Shown: one piece after another, positions 10,360 through 58,139 of the stretch | Numbering within the stretch: the first letter of the stretch is position 1 | How the letters are laid out: the number at the start of each line of letters is the position of its first letter | NCBI GenBank assembly: GCA_037446635.1 | Contig: JBBIIG010000003.1 | Location: 23,302-87,301 of the forward strand | Length of the DNA stretch: 64,000 bases | Origin: a bacterium | GTDB lineage: Bacteria > Zhuqueibacterota > Zhuqueibacteria > Oceanimicrobiales > Oceanimicrobiaceae | Direction of reading: 5' to 3' | Position numbers and translations under genes: made by a program | The notes under the pieces: model-generated | What the model was told of the DNA's origin: nothing | What the model saw: only the letters and a program-made list of their open reading frames with translations | The model's database searches: none

Positions 10360-11025
10360 TTGACTGAACATCAAGCAACCTACTTACAGCATCACTTCGA
10401 AGACGCCGACCAGCAGTTCGAAGCCTCAACATTGGGGATGTGGGCGTTTTTGGTCACTGAGATTCTGTTTTTTGGCGGACTGTTTTTAGGCTATTCGATC
10501 TATCGTTCTTTGTATCCGGAGGCCTTTGCTGCGGCCAGCCGGCTGCTGGATTATCGCCTCGGTGCCGTCAACACCGCGGTGCTCATCTGCAGCAGCCTGA
10601 CGATGGTGCTGGCAGTGCGCGCCGCTCAAATGGGAAATCGCCGTCCGCTCATCACCTTTTTGATTTTGACGATCCTGTTAGGCTCGACGTTTTTGGGGAT
10701 CAAAGTTGTGGAGTATTCGCACAAGTTTCACGAGCATTTGGTGCCGGGGCCGTCCTTTCATCTCCTGCCTGCGCAGGCAGGTGAGGGGAACGATCCGCAG
10801 CACGCGCAGCTTTTCTTTGCCTTCTATTTTGCGATGACCGGCATGCACGCGTTTCACATGATCATCGGCCTCGCGATTTTGGGAGTGCTGGTTTACAAAT
10901 CCTGGCAGGGACGCTTCACGTCTGAATACTACACACCAGTGGACATCACCGGCTTGTACTGGCACTTTGTGGATGTGGTCTGGATTTATCTTTTCCCATT
11001 ACTTTATCTAATCAGTCGGAGCTGA
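10360..11025 (+). CDS. ctaE: Cytochrome c oxidase subunit III
   Basis: LGMWAFLVTEILFFGGLF, NT.VL..SS, TGMHAFH, GLYWHFVDVVWIYLFPLLYL; TTG start. Confidence 0.92.
   Translation: MTEHQATYLQHHFEDADQQFEASTLGMWAFLVTEILFFGGLFLGYSIYRSLYPEAFAAASRLLDYRLGAVNTAVLICSSLTMVLAVRAAQMGNRRPLITFLILTILLGSTFLGIKVVEYSHKFHEHLVPGPSFHLLPAQAGEGNDPQHAQLFFAFYFAMTGMHAFHMIIGLAILGVLVYKSWQGRFTSEYYTPVDITGLYWHFVDVVWIYLFPLLYLISRS
10764..10781. mobile_element. 18-bp perfect palindromic mini-element (family B), in frame within ctaE
   Basis: cctgcctgc-gcaggcagg. Removing it turns FHLLPAQAGEGNDP into FHLEGNDP. An identical sequence is nested in tamB. Confidence 0.85.
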
Positions 11026-23850: not shown

Positions 23851-25701
23851 GTGAAACGCGCTGCCTTACTAACCTTTATCATCACTGCTTATCTACTGTT
23901 GTTGACCGCCAGCCTATTCTCACAAGAAGTCCGCGTTGATAAGCTTAAATTTAAAGGCAACAAAAGCATCTCCGCGGGCCAGCTCACCCAGGCCATCTTA
24001 ACGCGCGGCAAATCCTGGAGCAGCCGGATTTTTTTCTGGCAAGCCGGCCCCGAATTCGATGAAGATGTTTTCCTGCAGGACTTGCTGCGCATCGAGCGCT
24101 TTTATCAGCGCGAGGGCTATTTGCAGGCGCGCGTCAAAGATTATGAATTGCAATACAACGCCAAGCACACGCGCGTAAAGATCACCATAGTTGTCGAAGA
24201 GGGCCGGCCCACGCGCGTCGAGGCCGTTGAGGTGATGGGCGCGGACAGCATCGAGCTGCCGTTTCCGGCGGATCGGCTGCGGGCGCTGCTGACTCTGAAG
24301 CCGGGAAAACGCTACCGCGAAGAAGATTTGACTTTGGATCACACCCGGCTCACGGCGCGCTTCAGCAACCGCGGCTATCCGTACATTCAAGCCAGGGTCA
24401 AGCCCGTTTTCGATCCAGAACGCTATCGCGTGCGCCTCGAATGGCGCCTCGACCCCGGCCCGCTCTGCTATTTTGGCGAGATCACCATCGCCGGCAACGA
24501 AAGCGTTTCCGACGACGTGATTTTACGCGGCCTGGGGTTTCGACCCGGCCGGCCGTTTGTGCAGAGCCGCCTCGCCGACGCCCAGAGCCAGGTGTATCGG
24601 CTGGAGCTGTTTCAGTTTGTAAGTTTGCGCGCGCTGGATTTAGATCAAAAACCGGAGCACATCCCCATCGAAGTGCGGGTGCGGGAGTCGGCGCCGCGAA
24701 CGTTGAAGTTGGGCGTGGGCTACGGCTCGGAGGAATCGTTTCGGGCGTCGGCGCAGTGGCGGCATCGCAATTTTTTAGGCGGCGCGCGCATCCTGCGGAT
24801 ACTGGCCAAACATTCCACGGAAATTCTTCCGCTGCAATTGCAATTGGAGCTGAGCCAGCCTTATTTTTTCAGCAATAAAAACGACTTGCTTCTCAAACCG
24901 TTTTTCGTCTGGCAGGATGAAAGCAGCTTCGATGCCAAGCGCTTGGGTTTGGAAGCCACCTTCAACCGCCAGGTGACGCGCCGAACCAATGTTTTTTTCT
25001 CCCCGCGCGTGGAGCACAACCGCGTACGCAGCAAAACCGACTCGGTTACCGTCGAAACCAACAAGTCGGTATTGAGCGCGGGCGTGCGGCGCAATTCCAC
25101 GGACCAGCTTTTTTCGCCCACCCGCGGGCACATCTCCACGTTTGTGGCTGAAGAAGCCGGCCGCTTTTTGAGCAGTGAATTCAACTACCTCAAGTTTTAT
25201 TCCGAGCACCGCTTTTTTAAACAACTACACCCCGGGCACGTTTTTGCAACCCGGCTTTTTTTAGGCGCGATGAAACCCATTCGCGGCAGCCGCGCCACCC
25301 CGGTGGAAGAGCGGTTTTTCTCCGGCGGCAACTACTCGGTGCGCGGCTGGGGACGGCAATTCTTAGGCCCGCAGGCCTTCAACGACAGCTCGAAAACCGT
25401 CGTGCCGCTGGGCGGCGACAGCGCTCTTGAGGGCAGCTTCGAGTATCGTCACCCGATTTATAAGGACTTCACTGGCGCGCTTTTTTTGGATTATGGCAAC
25501 GTCTGGCAAAGGTGGGATGGAATCGATCTGCTGGATTTGCACTACGCCATCGGTTACGGCTTGCGCTACAACACTTTCATCGGACCCATCCGCATCGATG
25601 TGGCCTGGAAGCTTAATAAACAGCCGTTGGATGACGTCGTGAGTAGAAATCGCAGCAATAACCGCTATCAGATTCATTTCAGCATTGGGCAGGCGTTTTA
25701 G
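23851..25701 (+). CDS. tamA: Omp85-family protein with 3 POTRA domains (TamA-like)
   Basis: POTRA motifs, RFFSGG..SVRGW, GLRY.T.IGPIR.D, C-terminal SIGQAF; upstream of tamB. Confidence 0.88.
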   Translation: MKRAALLTFIITAYLLLLTASLFSQEVRVDKLKFKGNKSISAGQLTQAILTRGKSWSSRIFFWQAGPEFDEDVFLQDLLRIERFYQREGYLQARVKDYELQYNAKHTRVKITIVVEEGRPTRVEAVEVMGADSIELPFPADRLRALLTLKPGKRYREEDLTLDHTRLTARFSNRGYPYIQARVKPVFDPERYRVRLEWRLDPGPLCYFGEITIAGNESVSDDVILRGLGFRPGRPFVQSRLADAQSQVYRLELFQFVSLRALDLDQKPEHIPIEVRVRESAPRTLKLGVGYGSEESFRASAQWRHRNFLGGARILRILAKHSTEILPLQLQLELSQPYFFSNKNDLLLKPFFVWQDESSFDAKRLGLEATFNRQVTRRTNVFFSPRVEHNRVRSKTDSVTVETNKSVLSAGVRRNSTDQLFSPTRGHISTFVAEEAGRFLSSEFNYLKFYSEHRFFKQLHPGHVFATRLFLGAMKPIRGSRATPVEERFFSGGNYSVRGWGRQFLGPQAFNDSSKTVVPLGGDSALEGSFEYRHPIYKDFTGALFLDYGNVWQRWDGIDLLDLHYAIGYGLRYNTFIGPIRIDVAWKLNKQPLDDVVSRNRSNNRYQIHFSIGQAF

Positions 25702-25736: not shown

Positions 25737-28700
25737 ATGACTAAAATCATCAAGTATCTTTCCTATTTCTTACTATTCATAATCGTAGCGGCGCTGCTGC
25801 TCGCCGTTTTCACCCAAACTCCGATCTTCAAGAATTGGCTGAAAAACAAAATCATTCAATTGGCGGAAAGCAGCCTCAACGGCGAGGTCGCGATTCAGTC
25901 CCTGCAAGGCAATCTCTTCAGCTATTTTGAGATCGAGGGGCTGTCGGTAAAAATCGCCGGCGACGATTTTCTGAGGGTCCAGCGGGCGTTCATCAGTTTT
26001 AACCCCTACTCCTTTCTGAACAAAAAAATTGCGCTGCGGCAAATCATTTTGGCGGCGCCCGAAATCCACTTAACCCAAATGGATTCCGCCCACTGGAATT
26101 TTCATCGCCTTTTGAAACCGACGGCGCAGCCGGCGCCATCCGACAGCGCCACTCACTTCAACTGGGCCGTGGCGGCGCCCAACATCGTGGTCGCCGACGG
26201 CGCCATGCATCTGCGAACGCTCGGGGCGCTGCCGGTGGTGCTTCCAAAAACCATTCAAAACCTGAACGTCATTTTAGGACTCTGGCTCAACCAAGAAGAA
26301 ACCCAACTGGCGCTGGAAAAGCTGAGCTTCGACGCCCGCGACCCCGATCTCAGCTTGCGCACCAGCGAAACCAGGTTTCTTTTCCAGCGCGACCATCTCA
26401 AAGCCGAGGAGCTGGAAATTCAAACCGGCGCCTCCAAGCTCTCATCAAACATCGACATCAAAAATTTCACGGACCCGCAGGTGGATGCCCTGATTCAAGG
26501 GCAGCCGCTTTCTTTCACCGAGCTGCGCCGCGCCCTCCCTAAGCTGCGACTATACGGCGACCCCAAAATCATGCTAAAGGTGCGCGGCGGCCTCAGCGAT
26601 CTCGAAATCAATCTCCGCCTTTGGATGGGTGAAAACAACCTCGCCCTTTCCGGAAATCTCCAGCTCAAGCAGCCGCCCTATCGCTACCAGCTCAAAGGCG
26701 AGGTTTCGCATTTGAATGTGGCGGACTTCACCCACGACTCAACTTTTGCCAGCGATCTCAATTTTAATTTCGAGGTGGCGGGCCGGGAGTTTGAGTTTCA
26801 CAAAATGTCCAGCCAACTGACGCTGGCGCTCGATCGCAGCGCGGCGTTCGGGCTGTGGTTCGAGCCGCTCTGGGGGCGCTGTGAGATCGACAGCGCTCAA
26901 ATTAAATTTACGCTGCAAACCGGGTCGCGGGGGGCGAAAGCCGCAGCGGAGGGTTGGGCCACTTTGGCCGGCGACCTCCCCTCCTATCGTTTTCACGCCG
27001 ACATCCACAATTTCGATCTCAGCCAGTTCACCGACTCGTCGGCGGTGCACAGCGATCTCAATCTGCGCCTCGACGTCGATGGCCAGGGGATGGATGCCGA
27101 AACCCTCAGCGGCCATTTCAACTTAAAGTTGGCGCCGTCGAGTCTCAACGGCGTCCCCATCGACTCTGCTTATTTTCAAATTCACTTGCAGGAGAAAACG
27201 CTGCACCTGCGGGAGGTTTGGCTGGCCTCGCCGTTCACAAAGGTGACGGCGGCTGGCACCATCTCCGTTTCCGCCAAAGCGGACCCGCCAAGCGGACACA
27301 AAGAAAATCACCTGCAAGTGGAGGCCCAATTCATCGACTTCTCGGTGCTGAGCCAATCGCTGCCGCTGGATTCCCTGGCCGGCCGCGGCCGGTTTCACGC
27401 GCGCTTGGATGGCCCGCTGGATTCCCTGCTGGCGACCGCCACCCTTGAGCTGGTGGAACTTGCCGGCCGCGATTTCGCAATCGGGCAATTCGCGGCGCGA
27501 GGAACGGGCGTCTATTCGCCCGAAGGGGTGCGGTTCGAGGTGGCCGGGCGGCTCGATACCACTGCCGTCTTTGGAATGACCGATTTGCGCTCCGATTTCA
27601 ATTTTAGACTCGCCGATTCCGCCGTTCATTTTCGCATCGCCGCCCACAAGTTAGACGACCTCTCCGCCGCTACCACTGGCGAGTTGCGCTGGGATGGCGA
27701 AAGCGTGACGGTTTTTATCGACACGCTGAAGCTGAGCGTATTAAATCAGCAGTGGCAGAAAACCAGCGATTCCACCACTCTGCACATCGACGACGACGGC
27801 TACACGATTTCGGAGCTGCGGCTCTCCAGCGGCCAGCAATCTTTTTTCATCTCCGGAAACATGAATTTGGAAAAGGGCAACAACCTGTTGCTGCGCTTGC
27901 AGAACGTGGACCTCACCGGCTATCGCGCTTTTTTGGAGCGCGACGTCAACCTCAACGGCCGGCTGAATTTGAACGTGGCATTGGCCGGCGATCTGGCGGC
28001 GCCCACGATTCGCGCCGATTTTGAAGTCGCCAACTTGGAATATTACCAGGTGCCGTTTGCAAGCTTTTCCGGCTTTCTGGAATTTCAGAACGATTCCCTG
28101 CGTTGGCAGGCGGCGCTCTCCAAAACGGTGAGCGACAGCACGATGGAGACGAGCGGCTTCATTCCGATGAGACTGTCGTTTACGCGAAGCGGATCGCCTG
28201 CCCGCCCGCCAGAAGCCTTCCGCCGAAGCGGATCCGCCAAGCGGACAGGCAGGCGGGCCTGCGCAGGCAGGGTATCCGACGCTCCCTACGAATTTTGCAT
28301 TTTGTCCGACGAGCAAGTGGAAATCAGAATCAGCGCCCAAAATTTGGATCTGTCTTTTTTGCAGTTGTTTGCCACCGACATCAAAAACATCAAAGGTAAG
28401 CTGGCGGCGAACATCGTTTTGCGCAACACGCTCAACGATCTGCGCGGCGTCGGGCCCATCCGCATTTTCGACGGCCAGTTCGATATCCCCACTTTAGGCA
28501 CGCAGTACCGCAACGTCAATTTAGTGTTGCTGCTGCAGGATCAGGAGCTGATCATCAAAGATTTTCGGATGCAATCGGGCGGCGGCGAATTGCGGCTAGT
28601 GGAAGGCGGGCTGACGCTTTCCGAAAAAAGCCTCGAGGATTTCTCGGATACCGATCCGCTTCGCGGAAAAGTGCGCTTGCGCGCCAACAATTTTCGCTTG

Positions 28701-29747
28701 ATGAACGATAAACGCATGCAGGCGAGAGTGAAAGGCGATCTCGAACTCTCCGGCAGCATCCGCGCGCCCAAGTTTGCCGGCGAAATCACCGTCACCGAAT
28801 CGCGTATTTATTATCCGGCCTGGTTCGAACACGAACATCTGGTGGAACTCGCCAGCCAGCCCTATTTTATCATCTCCGACGATTCCACCGTGTTTGACAA
28901 CGACGGCGCCATGCGCTTCCAGAAGACCCGCGCCGCTGCCGAAGGCGATTTCACCAAAACGGAATTTTACAAACGGCTGCGCGGCGAGCTGGCCATCTAT
29001 TTTCCCCGCAACACCTGGATTCGCGGCAACGATCTCAACCTCGAAGTGGAGGGCGAGTTGGTGGCGGTGAAAGAGGGGCCGGAGATCGTTTTGTTCGGAA
29101 ATTTTCTAACCATTCGCGGCTACTATGAACTGCTGGGCAATCGTTTTCAAATCAATCAGGGGGAATTGGTTTTTCACGGCGAGCCGGAGCCGAACCCGGA
29201 GGTGAAAATCGAGGCGGTTTATGAGTTCCAGGACGCCGCCAGCGAAGACCGCCAGAAGCACGAGTTCAAAGTGACGATCACCGGCACCCTCTACACCCCG
29301 GAATTCAAATTCACCCTCGACGATCAGATTGCGGAGCAGGAAGATATTTTATCGATTTTATTATTCGGGCAGCGCCGCTCGTCGCTATCGGTGGGCCAGG
29401 CCTACAGCGCTTCCAAAGAAACCGATCTTGAAGATCGCGCCACCGGACTGGTAGCCGGGCAGATTATCAAACAGCTTTCGGGGAGGCTCGGCCAAACGCT
29501 GAAACTCGATATGATCCAAATCGAAAGCGGCAAAGATTTGACCGAGTCCAAAGTCCGGATCGGCAAATATGTGACCCCGGACGTGTTCGTGAGCGTCAGC
29601 CAGGATTTCGGCGACGAGGGCAATCGCAAAGTGGAGCTAGAGTATGAACTGCCCAAAAAGCTTTTCTTTCTCAACCTGTTGATGCAAGCCTCCGTGGAGC
29701 GGCGCGGCGCCACCGGTCTGGATATCATCTGGAAAATTGAGTGGTAA
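25737..29747 (+). CDS. tamB: Translocation and assembly module TamB, carrying three in-frame mini-element insertions
   Basis: N-terminal anchor, long beta-rich body, C-terminal DUF490-like region (RG.Y...G.RF.I..G...F.G, IGKY.T). Confidence 0.9.
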   Translation: MTKIIKYLSYFLLFIIVAALLLAVFTQTPIFKNWLKNKIIQLAESSLNGEVAIQSLQGNLFSYFEIEGLSVKIAGDDFLRVQRAFISFNPYSFLNKKIALRQIILAAPEIHLTQMDSAHWNFHRLLKPTAQPAPSDSATHFNWAVAAPNIVVADGAMHLRTLGALPVVLPKTIQNLNVILGLWLNQEETQLALEKLSFDARDPDLSLRTSETRFLFQRDHLKAEELEIQTGASKLSSNIDIKNFTDPQVDALIQGQPLSFTELRRALPKLRLYGDPKIMLKVRGGLSDLEINLRLWMGENNLALSGNLQLKQPPYRYQLKGEVSHLNVADFTHDSTFASDLNFNFEVAGREFEFHKMSSQLTLALDRSAAFGLWFEPLWGRCEIDSAQIKFTLQTGSRGAKAAAEGWATLAGDLPSYRFHADIHNFDLSQFTDSSAVHSDLNLRLDVDGQGMDAETLSGHFNLKLAPSSLNGVPIDSAYFQIHLQEKTLHLREVWLASPFTKVTAAGTISVSAKADPPSGHKENHLQVEAQFIDFSVLSQSLPLDSLAGRGRFHARLDGPLDSLLATATLELVELAGRDFAIGQFAARGTGVYSPEGVRFEVAGRLDTTAVFGMTDLRSDFNFRLADSAVHFRIAAHKLDDLSAATTGELRWDGESVTVFIDTLKLSVLNQQWQKTSDSTTLHIDDDGYTISELRLSSGQQSFFISGNMNLEKGNNLLLRLQNVDLTGYRAFLERDVNLNGRLNLNVALAGDLAAPTIRADFEVANLEYYQVPFASFSGFLEFQNDSLRWQAALSKTVSDSTMETSGFIPMRLSFTRSGSPARPPEAFRRSGSAKRTGRRACAGRVSDAPYEFCILSDEQVEIRISAQNLDLSFLQLFATDIKNIKGKLAANIVLRNTLNDLRGVGPIRIFDGQFDIPTLGTQYRNVNLVLLLQDQELIIKDFRMQSGGGELRLVEGGLTLSEKSLEDFSDTDPLRGKVRLRANNFRLMNDKRMQARVKGDLELSGSIRAPKFAGEITVTESRIYYPAWFEHEHLVELASQPYFIISDDSTVFDNDGAMRFQKTRAAAEGDFTKTEFYKRLRGELAIYFPRNTWIRGNDLNLEVEGELVAVKEGPEIVLFGNFLTIRGYYELLGNRFQINQGELVFHGEPEPNPEVKIEAVYEFQDAASEDRQKHEFKVTITGTLYTPEFKFTLDDQIAEQEDILSILLFGQRRSSLSVGQAYSASKETDLEDRATGLVAGQIIKQLSGRLGQTLKLDMIQIESGKDLTESKVRIGKYVTPDVFVSVSQDFGDEGNRKVELEYELPKKLFFLNLLMQASVERRGATGLDIIWKIEW
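27270..27296. mobile_element. 27-bp double-hairpin mini-element (family D), in frame within tamB
   Basis: tccgc-caaa-gcgga + cccgc-caa-gcgga encodes SAKADPPSG; 25/27 identical to 28219-28245. Confidence 0.8.
28181..28279. mobile_element. 99-bp four-level nested mini-element insertion A[B[C[D]]], in frame within tamB
   Basis: Decomposes into 24+18+30+27 bp, each matching a stand-alone copy elsewhere in the window. Removal gives LSFAPYEF. Confidence 0.88.
28644..28667. mobile_element. 24-bp double-hairpin mini-element (family A), in frame within tamB
   Basis: tcgg-ata-ccga + tccgc-ttc-gcgga encodes SDTDPLRG. Its reverse complement matches 23/24 with the outer shell of 28181-28279. Confidence 0.82.
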
Positions 29748-37922: not shown

Positions 37923-38062
37923 TGTCATTGCGAGCGACCCGTAGGGAGCGAAGCAATCTCCTAATGAGCAGGCGTGAGATTGCTTCGTCGTCCGCAACCT
38001 AATTTTAGAATTTCAGAATCCGTGTGGGCTTCTCGCCTGCCTGCTGCAGGCAGGCAATGACA
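37923..38062. repeat. gtcattgcgag...ctcgcaatgac palindromic repeat with a 19-bp family B element inserted in its right arm (38036-38054)
   Basis: ctcg|cctgcctgctgcaggcagg|caatgac; the uninterrupted ctcgcaatgac is seen at 3804-3814 and in this repeat's own left arm. Confidence 0.85.
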
Positions 38063-39318: not shown

Positions 39319-39337
39319 CCTGCCTGCTGCAGGCAGG
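39319..39337. mobile_element. 19-bp family B mini-element in an intergenic octamer array
   Basis: cctgcctgc-t-gcaggcagg, identical to 38036-38054. Confidence 0.8.
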
Positions 39338-42543: not shown

Positions 42544-42834
42544 TGGACGCTGATTGCGCAGATAAACGCTGATTATTACAATGTGAGACAATTTAGAGCT
42601 CCATTTCACTTGTACAGGTTCCTTAGACCTCACCCTTCCGCGAAGCGGATCCGCTTTGGCGGAAACCCTCTCCTATAAGGAGAGGGAACCGAATCCCTTC
42701 CCCTGTTACCTGCCTGCCGCAGACAGGAGGGAAGGTTAGGATGGGGTCATCTGATTGATGATACGAGCCTGCAAATATTTTTGAAAATGGTGTCCCAGAG
42801 AAATCAGCGTGAATCTGCGATCATCTGCGTCCCA
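42544..42834. repeat. Composite intergenic repeat: acgcagat/acgctgat inverted ends enclosing ccctctcc hairpins, with a 27-bp A/D-type element (42637-42663) and a 19-bp B element (42709-42727)
   Basis: tggacgctgattgcgcagataaacgctgatt ... aatcagcgtgaatctgcgatcatctgcgtccca; tccgcgaagcggatccgctttggcgga; cctgcctgccgcagacagg. Confidence 0.8.
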
Positions 42835-43570: not shown

Positions 43571-43597
43571 TCGGCAGAGCCGATCCGCTTTTGCGGA
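43571..43597. mobile_element. 27-bp double-hairpin mini-element (A/D type), intergenic
   Basis: tcggc-aga-gccga + tccgc-tttt-gcgga inside an agattcctcactccg...gttcgggatgaca repeat. Confidence 0.7.
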
Positions 43598-51082: not shown

Positions 51083-51949
51083 ATGAACCTCGACTTCCTG
51101 ATCGACAAAGTTGTAGATGAAATGACTGCTCAGCCCGTCCACTCGCACGGCGTGAAAACGCCCGAGTGCAACTGGTGCTGGGTGTGCCCCAACTGCCGCA
51201 GCGAGGTGGTGAAAGAGATGGTTGGCAATGGCGCCAATCGCGTGGGCGCGGGACCGAATTTAGGCCCGATTCACACGAACCTCGCAAAGTACATCGATCA
51301 CACGTTGCTCAAACCGGAAGCCACCGAAGATCAAATCATCAAACTGTGCCATGAAGCGGTGCAGTACGGCTTCGCTTCGGTGTGTGTTAATCCGACCTGG
51401 GTGCGGCTCTGCCGTGAGCTGACGCGCAACAGCGACGTGCTGGTGTGCACCGTGGCCGGCTTTCCGTTGGGCGCCAACACGACTGCGGTTAAAGCCTTTG
51501 AAACCCAGAAAGCGGTGGAAGAAGGCGCCGACGAAGTGGATATGGTCATCAACATCGGGCGGATGAAATCCGGCGACTACAATTTCGTGATGCGCGACAT
51601 CCGCGCGGTGGTAGAGGCCGCGGCCAAACGCGCAGAAGTCAAAGTCATCATCGAAACCTGTTATCTCACGGATGAAGAAAAAATCAAAGCGTGTCTCTTG
51701 GTCAAGGAAGCCGGCGCGCATTTCGTGAAAACTTCAACTGGCTTTGGCAAACAGGGCGCGACCCTCGGCGACGTGGCACTCATGCGCAAAGTCGTCGGTA
51801 GCGAATTGGGCGTGAAGGCCGCCGGCGGCATCCGCGATTACGAGGTCGCGGCGCAGATGATCGAAGCCGGCGCCAACCGACTCGGCGCCTCCGCCAGCGT
51901 GGCTATCATCGGACTGCCCGCCAGAGGCCTTGGGCAGGCGGGCAAATGA
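51083..51949 (+). CDS. deoC: Deoxyribose-phosphate aldolase with N-terminal extension (putative encapsulation peptide + Cys cluster)
   Basis: [40 protein letters not shown]; about 65 extra N-terminal residues. Confidence 0.97.
51913..51942. mobile_element. 30-bp family C mini-element, in frame at the deoC C-terminus
   Basis: actgcccgccagaggccttgggcaggcggg encodes [10 protein letters not shown]; 26/30 identical to 57305-57334. Confidence 0.8.
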
Positions 51950-56765: not shown

Positions 56766-58139
56766 ATGATGAAAAAAATGACACTCGTAATTATCTCATT
56801 CTCACTATTAGTTTATGCTGCTGCATTTCCCAGCGAACCCAACGCCGACCAGCAGCGCAACTGGCCGCAGTGGCGGGGACCGCTGGCCAACGGCGTCGCC
56901 CCGCACGCCAATCCACCAGTCGAATGGAGCGCAACCAAAAACATCCGCTGGAAAACCGAAATTCCCGGACGCGGTCACGCCACGCCCATCGTTTGGGGTG
57001 AGCAGATTTTCATCTTAACCGCGGTAGAAACGGAACAGGCCGGCAGCACTCCCGCCGCCGATAATAACCTGCCCGAATGGCGACGCGGCCGCGGCATTTC
57101 CACGGACAAAATCCACCGCTACGACGTTCTCTCCATCAACCGAAAAGATGGCAAAATTCTTTGGCAGAAAACCGCGACCACCGCGCTGCCCCACGAAGGC
57201 ACCCACACCGACGGCAGTTGGGCCTCCCACTCGCCGATTACCGATGGCGAATTGCTATTTGCGTATTTTGGATCGCGGGGAATTTTTTGTTACGATCTCA
57301 AAGGCCTGCCCGCCAGAAGCCTAAGGCAGGCGGGCAATTTGAAATGGCAGAAAGATTTGGGCGACATGACCACCCGTAACAGTTTCGGCGAGGGCAGCTC
57401 GCCGGCGCTGCACGGAGATAAACTCATCATCAACTGGGATCACGAGGGGCAATCGTTTATTGTCGTTCTCAATAAAAAAACTGGTGAAGAAATTTGGCGC
57501 GCCGATCGCGACGAACCGACCTCGTGGTCCACGCCACTGGTGGTGAGCCATGATGGCCAGCCGCAGGTGATCGTCAGCGCCACCAATCGCGTGCGCAGTT
57601 ATGATCTCAACAGCGGCAAAATTTTGTGGGAATCGAGCGGCATGACCGTAAATACGATCCCCTCGCCCGTGCACGATGACGGCATAGTGTACGTGATGAG
57701 CGGCTTCCGCGGCAGCGCGCTGCAAGCCATTCGCCTCGCCGATGCCCGCGGCTACATCAACGATACGCCGGCCATCATCTGGCAGCACGACCGCGACACG
57801 CCGTATGTGCCCTCGCCGCTGCTGTACGACGACAACCTCTATTTTCTGAAAGTGAACACGGCTATTCTTTCCTGCTTCAACGCCCGCACGGGCGAGCCCA
57901 ATTATGAGCCGCAGCGGCTGGAGGGGTTGACGAACGTTTACAGCTCGCCCGTGGGCGCGGCGGGTCGCGTTTATATCACCAGCCGCAACGGCGCGACCCT
58001 GGTGCTGAAAAACAGCCCACAATTCGAGGTGCTCGCCGTCAATCAACTCCATGATGATTTCGAGGCCTCGGCGGCGTTAGTTGATGGGGAATTGTACTTG
58101 CGAGGAAAACAGACGTTGTATTGTATAGCGGAAAACTGA
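56766..58139 (+). CDS. PQQ-binding-like beta-propeller protein
   Basis: WPQWRGP..NG, WKT.IPG.G..TP.VW, SSP, WSTP, YSSPV, LYLRG...LYCI. Confidence 0.9.
   Translation: MMKKMTLVIISFSLLVYAAAFPSEPNADQQRNWPQWRGPLANGVAPHANPPVEWSATKNIRWKTEIPGRGHATPIVWGEQIFILTAVETEQAGSTPAADNNLPEWRRGRGISTDKIHRYDVLSINRKDGKILWQKTATTALPHEGTHTDGSWASHSPITDGELLFAYFGSRGIFCYDLKGLPARSLRQAGNLKWQKDLGDMTTRNSFGEGSSPALHGDKLIINWDHEGQSFIVVLNKKTGEEIWRADRDEPTSWSTPLVVSHDGQPQVIVSATNRVRSYDLNSGKILWESSGMTVNTIPSPVHDDGIVYVMSGFRGSALQAIRLADARGYINDTPAIIWQHDRDTPYVPSPLLYDDNLYFLKVNTAILSCFNARTGEPNYEPQRLEGLTNVYSSPVGAAGRVYITSRNGATLVLKNSPQFEVLAVNQLHDDFEASAALVDGELYLRGKQTLYCIAEN
57305..57334. mobile_element. 30-bp family C mini-element, in frame in the beta-propeller gene
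   Basis: cctgcccgccagaagcctaaggcaggcggg. Removal restores the blade motif CYDLKGNLKWQKDLG. Confidence 0.88.

Follow-up and report, generated by a model that had tools for sequence, protein, structure and literature searches.

How did a block of 33 codons come to lie in frame inside a bacterial tamB gene, and in how many steps was it put together? The 99-bp block consists of four hairpin-shaped pieces of 18-30 bp and lies in the window, that is, the whole stretch of 64,000 nucleotides that was analysed. The account that we hold to be probable, with some reserve, is that it is a real in-frame insert of gene-less mobile hairpins of 18-30 bp, which grew within the outermost of them (layer A). The features concerned are the following.

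23851..25701, + strand: tamA-like Omp85/POTRA gene, upstream of tamB
25737..29747, + strand: tamB, an open ORF of 1336 aa with three separate element sites (Pfam TamB, E 2.8e-50)
27270..27296, + strand: D-type element in tamB, in frame, common to the relative P0001 (see below) and missing from more distant relatives
28181..28279, + strand: 99-bp nest A[B[C[D]]], in frame, TamB residues about 816-848
28181..28196, + strand: layer A, left part, with a private change at its second base (Thr here, Pro in P0001)
28272..28279, + strand: layer A, right part
28197..28271, + strand: inner 75 bp, B+C+D, missing from the A-only relative
28197..28200, no strand: layer B, left part (the whole of B is a perfect 18-bp palindrome)
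28258..28271, no strand: layer B, right part
28201..28218, + strand: layer C, left part
28246..28257, + strand: layer C, right part
28219..28245, + strand: layer D, a 27-bp double hairpin whose exact variant occurs six times in the genome, always at the same position in C
28644..28667, - strand: A element in tamB, in frame, missing from P0001 (recent)
10764..10781, no strand: free B copy, in frame within a called gene
57305..57334, + strand: free C copy, in frame within a called gene

The exact decomposition of the 99 bp into four layers, given in a preliminary description of this DNA, was reproduced in full: A matches the copy at 28644 in 23 of 24 positions, B that at 10764 in 18 of 18, C that at 57305 in 28 of 30 and D that at 27270 in 25 of 27. 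Since D has six exact copies in the genome, the 25/27 copy cited earlier is not its nearest relative. Removal of the 99 bp restores LSF-APY, as found in relatives. The nest was read by hand; the pattern parser broke it into two pieces. Folding of the 119-nt region is modestly better than that of shuffled sequences (z -2.4, -2.5).

The pieces belong to a set of elements described by ten patterns in two groups, those starting with CCTG (B, 18 or 19 bp, and C, 30 bp) and the double hairpins starting with TCCG (A, 24 bp; D, 26 or 27 bp; and the related E and F). The hairpin begins at the first base, and no ORF lies within. Recursive removal of the ten patterns yields 283 copies in the source genome (G000, 4.64 million bases, 97% complete, its contigs bearing C-numbers) as against 0 in a reversed-genome control, which rules out chance. 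These copies cover 6,557 bases and form 242 loci, 92 in called genes and 150 outside (the gene calls, 3,545 genes at 84% coding, are home-made). Additional C-like variants of 24 and 30 bp, with the same ends and other loops, occur on C3, C6, C9, C32 and C35; as they fall outside the ten patterns, 283 is a lower bound. In the window itself, further B19, F27 and C30 copies lie at 38036-38054, 39319-39337, 43571-43597 and 51913-51942, and a long purine/pyrimidine-rich hairpin repeat at 42637-42727 contains a 27-bp E-type element and a 19-bp B variant. About 16 E copies genome-wide occupy this type of host site, and empty hosts are also present. A comparison of 27000-29000 with Rfam, admitting E up to 1, gave no match. 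G000 also has many other families of short repeats.

Outside the source genome the elements are patchy. Exact B has 37 copies in G000 and 16 in G001, the one same-genus genome (74% complete), and 0 in 39 of the 41 genomes searched. The left part of the A/D type gives 80 matches in G000, 15 in G001, one each in four genomes and, of the 167 genomes examined in the phylum, 161 give none. B is also present in 29 viral-contig stretches of 39-70% GC, several of the copies lying within other hairpins. Scans of viral sequences with A and C, and both metagenome scans, returned no matches, and a D+C-right scan of the genome collection returned one locus, whose sequence is that of a G001 locus. This patchy distribution suggests that the elements probably spread horizontally. 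Homologous proteins bear names suggestive of candidate division KSB1 or kin. On two viral contigs (L097-L100), two B copies 656 bp apart, whose flanks are related and of opposite orientation, bracket a small phage gene.

Relatives reveal how the tamB site was filled. It is empty in 27 of 27 relative genomes (29 relative loci, 28 of them aligned), and an alignment of ten TamB homologues contains nine empty alleles and one with A only. The latter, P0001 (1303 aa, 87% identical), reads LSFPRSGSVSDAPY, which is layer A only; it has the D-type element at 27270 and is without the A copy at 28644. In runs X3 and X4, which come from two studies, the contigs have a joint at 28195/28271 that skips exactly 75 bases, and the A-only relative is probably one organism sampled in both studies. 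Among the contigs listed for the two closest runs, none bridges the site. Three states, empty, A and full nest, are seen directly, and their direction is inferred from outgroups: the empty site took the 24-bp A first, in an ancestor, and the inner 75 bp was added within A later. Of the order A, B, C, D proposed for this site, the first step is upheld, given that P0001, X3 and X4 all skip exactly the inner 75 bp; the alignment, which yielded the expected empty and A-only alleles, contains neither A+B nor A+B+C. With A alone as the only intermediate, one, two or three later events are indistinguishable at tamB. As a rule, the order A, B, C, D fails: B also sits within C, and D-like units within B.

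Growth of a loop in place, another element of the preliminary description, is seen at three further loci. A spore-photoproduct-lyase-like gene is empty, holds A or holds A[B] among three proteins that are 89% alike. A protein on C40 is empty in six of seven aligned homologues, has A only in one and carries an 87-bp nest in G000, while a single site on C42 has A in G000 and A[B] in G001. Ten proteins were checked for such orthologous states (three were informative, five were single-member clusters and two were absent from the collection). One nest is unchanged in a 95% relative. Between G000 and G001, a ferrochelatase-like gene shows three different inserts within about ten codons (by eye), and this clustering of independent insertions in one loop supports the idea of a tolerant loop. 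At C32:20240-20307 (L054) a collapsed four-layer nest is found, in which the left part of A is joined to the right part of D via shared sequence; its length is not a multiple of three, and the 3' end of a polyphosphate kinase 1 ORF reads into it.

Insertions are blunt and leave no target duplication. Empty orthologous sites and empty host repeats rejoin without one. When rejoined, 112 of the 283 junctions closely resemble a sequence elsewhere in the genome, in some cases through chance or self-overlap. G|C is found at 79 of 116 outermost sites of B and C; when these elements are oriented for best fit, which inflates the counts, C occupies +1 in 116 of 132 and A occupies +3 in 100 of 132. At the 31 coding sites of the A/D type, C is found at -4 in 19, T at -2 in 24 and A at +2 in 22, the flanks being C-T-T-T/G on the 5' side and NAA on the 3' side. 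The target motifs are G|C, mostly S|CRA, for B and C, and CYYT|NAA for A and D.

Certain fixed sites within the elements act as genuine hot spots that receive new insertions. At GGATCG, of which there are 663 such words, 16 of 23 pattern rows run on as whole guests, of at least four kinds, all 16 within A/F-type elements, and the presence of so many guest kinds at one site in A establishes that such hot spots exist; at GCCW|CAGG, 8 of 8 guests lie within C. It is in this form, of fixed positions within elements, that the earlier suggestion of a preference for existing hairpins survives. General hairpin targeting is not seen at coding sites, which do not differ from matched controls in folding energy or spanning stems (45 B/C sites, p 0.17; 31 A/D-type sites, p 0.65). 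Better folding than in controls is found at non-coding sites (p 8e-4, 6e-7), but many of these are in repeated hosts that may have multiplied along with them.

Joints that are blunt and free of duplication, hairpins that are stable and targets with a short motif are together the marks of HUH action on single strands (PMC6006769, PMC8266576). The tentative proposal, which we hold with some doubt, is that the elements travel as hairpins of single-stranded DNA, with an HUH tyrosine enzyme of the RAYT/IS200 type cutting and joining them in trans at short motifs. Host copies would carry their guests, and filled copies may overwrite empty ones by means of short single strands. In E. coli, oligonucleotides can be inserted without RecA when a phage annealing protein is present (PMC2920528). 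Layer A contains the GCGNAGC mini-hairpin named in PMC13037366. Four Y1 (RAYT-like) loci are present in G000 (L031-L034), each flanked by a different repeat family, one of which is GTAG-tagged. Whole A-D elements lie near one of the nine Y1 loci of G000 and G001, not as a flanking array, and the Y1 match in question is below the Pfam cut-off. The guide tetranucleotide seen at the hairpin foot in REP and at IS200/IS605 ends is missing from the elements.

It is conceivable, if rather doubtful, that another machine is at work: a rolling circle like that of IS91, a recombinase of IS110, reverse transcription, or a cassette with a small nuclease and the elements as its arms. The right flanks CAA, CGA and GAA resemble the targets GAAC, CAAG and CGAC of IS801, an IS91-type element (PMC3189936), yet neither G000 (97% complete) nor G001 (74%) has a Y2 transposase, as 9 of 41 relatives do. 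The presence of B in the 29 viral-contig stretches of 39-70% GC means that the enzyme may be a visitor. No IS110 is found in G000, however, whose sole reverse transcriptase is a long fusion adjoining a cas6-like gene (family by eye); A-D elements are near neither DUF559 locus, and inspection by eye of the residual half-elements revealed no A-D arms bracketing a gene. The analysis gave no support for links to IS91, IS110, the reverse transcriptase or DUF559. The reverse transcriptase (L059, C27:2432-6031) is part of a 985-codon frame with TPR-like and primase-like parts, again judged by eye.

As to the inner 75 bp, we lean slightly towards one or two events of addition, C and D having been united beforehand, because a host would carry its guests when copied and filled copies could overwrite empty ones. 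Full nests also occur at C15, C63 and C51 (C+D alone at C50, C2 and C9), and the exact D lies within C in six of six copies, while 0 of 8 D27 copies outside C carry that sequence. This suggests that part of the inner 75 bp probably came pre-assembled and that C+D looks like an inherited unit. C+D is wholly missing from six of six Lhr homologues, and a 75-bp C nest of G001 stands opposite an empty G000 site. At C15, all five departures from consensus are in A and B and none in C+D (chance about 0.014). On the other hand, B+C+D is never complete outside an A-type host, which is unlike the movement of free B, and three C loop variants occur both empty and D-filled, a pattern that a single inherited C+D explains less well than D inserting repeatedly, or conversion, would.

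Three separate later events at tamB appear rather unlikely, and strictly stepwise growth, with A, B, C and D as four independent hot-spot insertions, is unlikely. That A came first is shown at tamB, and the single step from A to A[B] at two other loci, but one genome holds four full nests plus a collapsed copy. Of about 16 A-hosted guests, 5 have C at position 4 of B, as against about 2 of some 100 other B copies (by-eye counts), a bias unfavourable to independent steps, whereas the use of common hot spots by different guests is favourable to them. G001 has B[C] where G000 has an apparent decayed B (by eye), and an A-type nest of B-left+C without D lies at C9:96141; no C-only state, however, was found opposite any C+D site, and a rarer C loop variant and an identical D are common to tamB and C15.

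Single insertion of the whole nest was dropped as an explanation once the A-only allele appeared. It is improbable, too, that the 99-bp nest landed whole and that in the relative the inner 75 bp was then precisely deleted, or an empty A replaced the nest. Full nests are present at other loci, and empty A copies outnumber filled ones, but precise loss would be required at four separate loci and in both directions between lineages, and the inner layers at C15 are younger than the outer ones. Internal deletion of a nest does occur (C32:20240), although this sole case is not a precise reversal. An assembly artefact, in which a repeat-induced join put a composite from elsewhere into tamB, is hardly credible: the nest is a repeat and the contigs of related runs break within it, but the tamB copy has private changes missing from C15, C63 and C51, its inner part is flanked by only 16 and 8 bp of A, and the frame is unbroken, with gene flanks on both sides that are intact and agree with the A-only relative.

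The frame is strongly constrained in genes. The length is a multiple of three at 90 of 92 coding loci versus 100 of 150 non-coding loci (Fisher p 4e-10), and the frame is kept open at 87 of the 92. Because 19-bp and 26-bp variants exist, and are common outside genes, frame keeping is best explained by selection, only inserts of whole codons persisting in genes. The remark that each layer is a multiple of three is thus true of the tamB layers and describes a filter acting in genes, not a property of the families. B stands in the LPAQAG phase at 29 of 34 single coding sites, versus 35% expected from GC positions (p 2e-9), while several reading frames are used in A and D. The phase bias of B suggests that the peptide is under selection, and hence that the inserts would be translated. 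Coding hosts include queE-like, recC, oligopeptidase B and lhr-like genes. Three in-frame elements each are found in recC (L053, C43:12738-16205), the lhr-like gene (L051) and a 2-oxoacid oxidoreductase fusion (L055). At C38:39127-39207, two C copies lie 51 bp apart near a gene end, one of them adding an in-frame stop.

In an AlphaFold2 model of TamB residues 661-1030 (mean pLDDT 79, 19 sequences), the insert is unstructured (pLDDT <50) and lies between two strands. Such low confidence is expected, since no other alignment row covers the insert; the model thus fits the tolerant surface loop proposed earlier without proving it. The empty site is probably strand-turn-strand, a turn geometry judged from the model of the filled protein. 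The insert in tamB probably has no effect, its peptide most likely being tolerated as a loop without function.

How palindromic repeats enter genes has been an open question since the Rickettsia elements were described, and the available literature still calls their spreading mechanism unresolved. Here, empty, one-layer and nested alleles are captured at four orthologous sites with exact junctions; these junctions, with the defined target motifs and hot spots, make candidate enzymes testable on short oligonucleotides. The elements also offer a case, backed by counts, in which selfish DNA adds peptide loops while selection acts on frame and amino acids. What gives the case its value is that intermediates have been captured and that the targets are exact. 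A bolder and doubtful view is that the elements may form an undescribed minimal class of mobile DNA, going down to 18 bp, in which each member is a preferred landing site for the others. Filled copies would overwrite empty ones in a miniature homing, loops would ratchet longer in whole codons, and the moving enzyme would be shared, horizontally spread and new.

Double-hairpin elements and GC clusters are known from fungal mitochondria. Like these, A and D each pair two neighbouring GC-rich hairpins, at about 25 bp, and are present in some relatives but absent from others; the present ones reside in a bacterial chromosome, and the likeness noted here is one of form. IS91 differs by its Y2 rolling-circle transposase, found in neither G000 nor G001. 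MITEs are 70-300 bp long with terminal inverted repeats of 15-30 bp (PMC3733652), whereas the present units are 18-30 bp and without target site duplication. With IS200/IS605 (PMC6006769) the elements share the lack of target duplication and the hairpin ends; the A/D type may also share a short target motif 5' of the element, though NAA lies on its 3' side as well. However, they have no transposase gene or guide tetranucleotide, are far smaller and have targets constrained on both sides.

REP/REPtron systems (PMC3733652, PMC6006769, PMC8266576) come closer, being hairpins of 20-50 nt in many copies with a candidate Y1 enzyme in the genome; some REPs are intragenic and in frame, or dimeric (PMC3733652). 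The 283 copies, with 150 of 242 loci outside called genes, agree with a mostly intergenic REP pattern, B at 18 bp being slightly short. Unlike REPs, the elements are without GTAG/CGTC at the hairpin foot (flank tables) and do not flank a cognate tnpA-REP locus. REP clusters, moreover, are described as side-by-side dimers or arrays, not nests, and 92 of 242 loci here are in genes. A literature search, mainly of openly available articles, found no description of these elements or of fixed-site nesting.

The nearest parallel in behaviour is with the Rickettsia palindromic elements (RPE; PMC10969869), which are likewise palindromic, gene-less, dispersed and in frame in unrelated genes, with a recurring peptide. 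RPE are about 150 bp long as against 18-30 bp, and their hosts are Rickettsia, in contrast to a free-living uncultured lineage and viral contigs. Nesting at fixed positions is a further difference, the available text of the RPE review (PMC10969869) never using the word 'nested'. The present elements work like RPE without being RPE.
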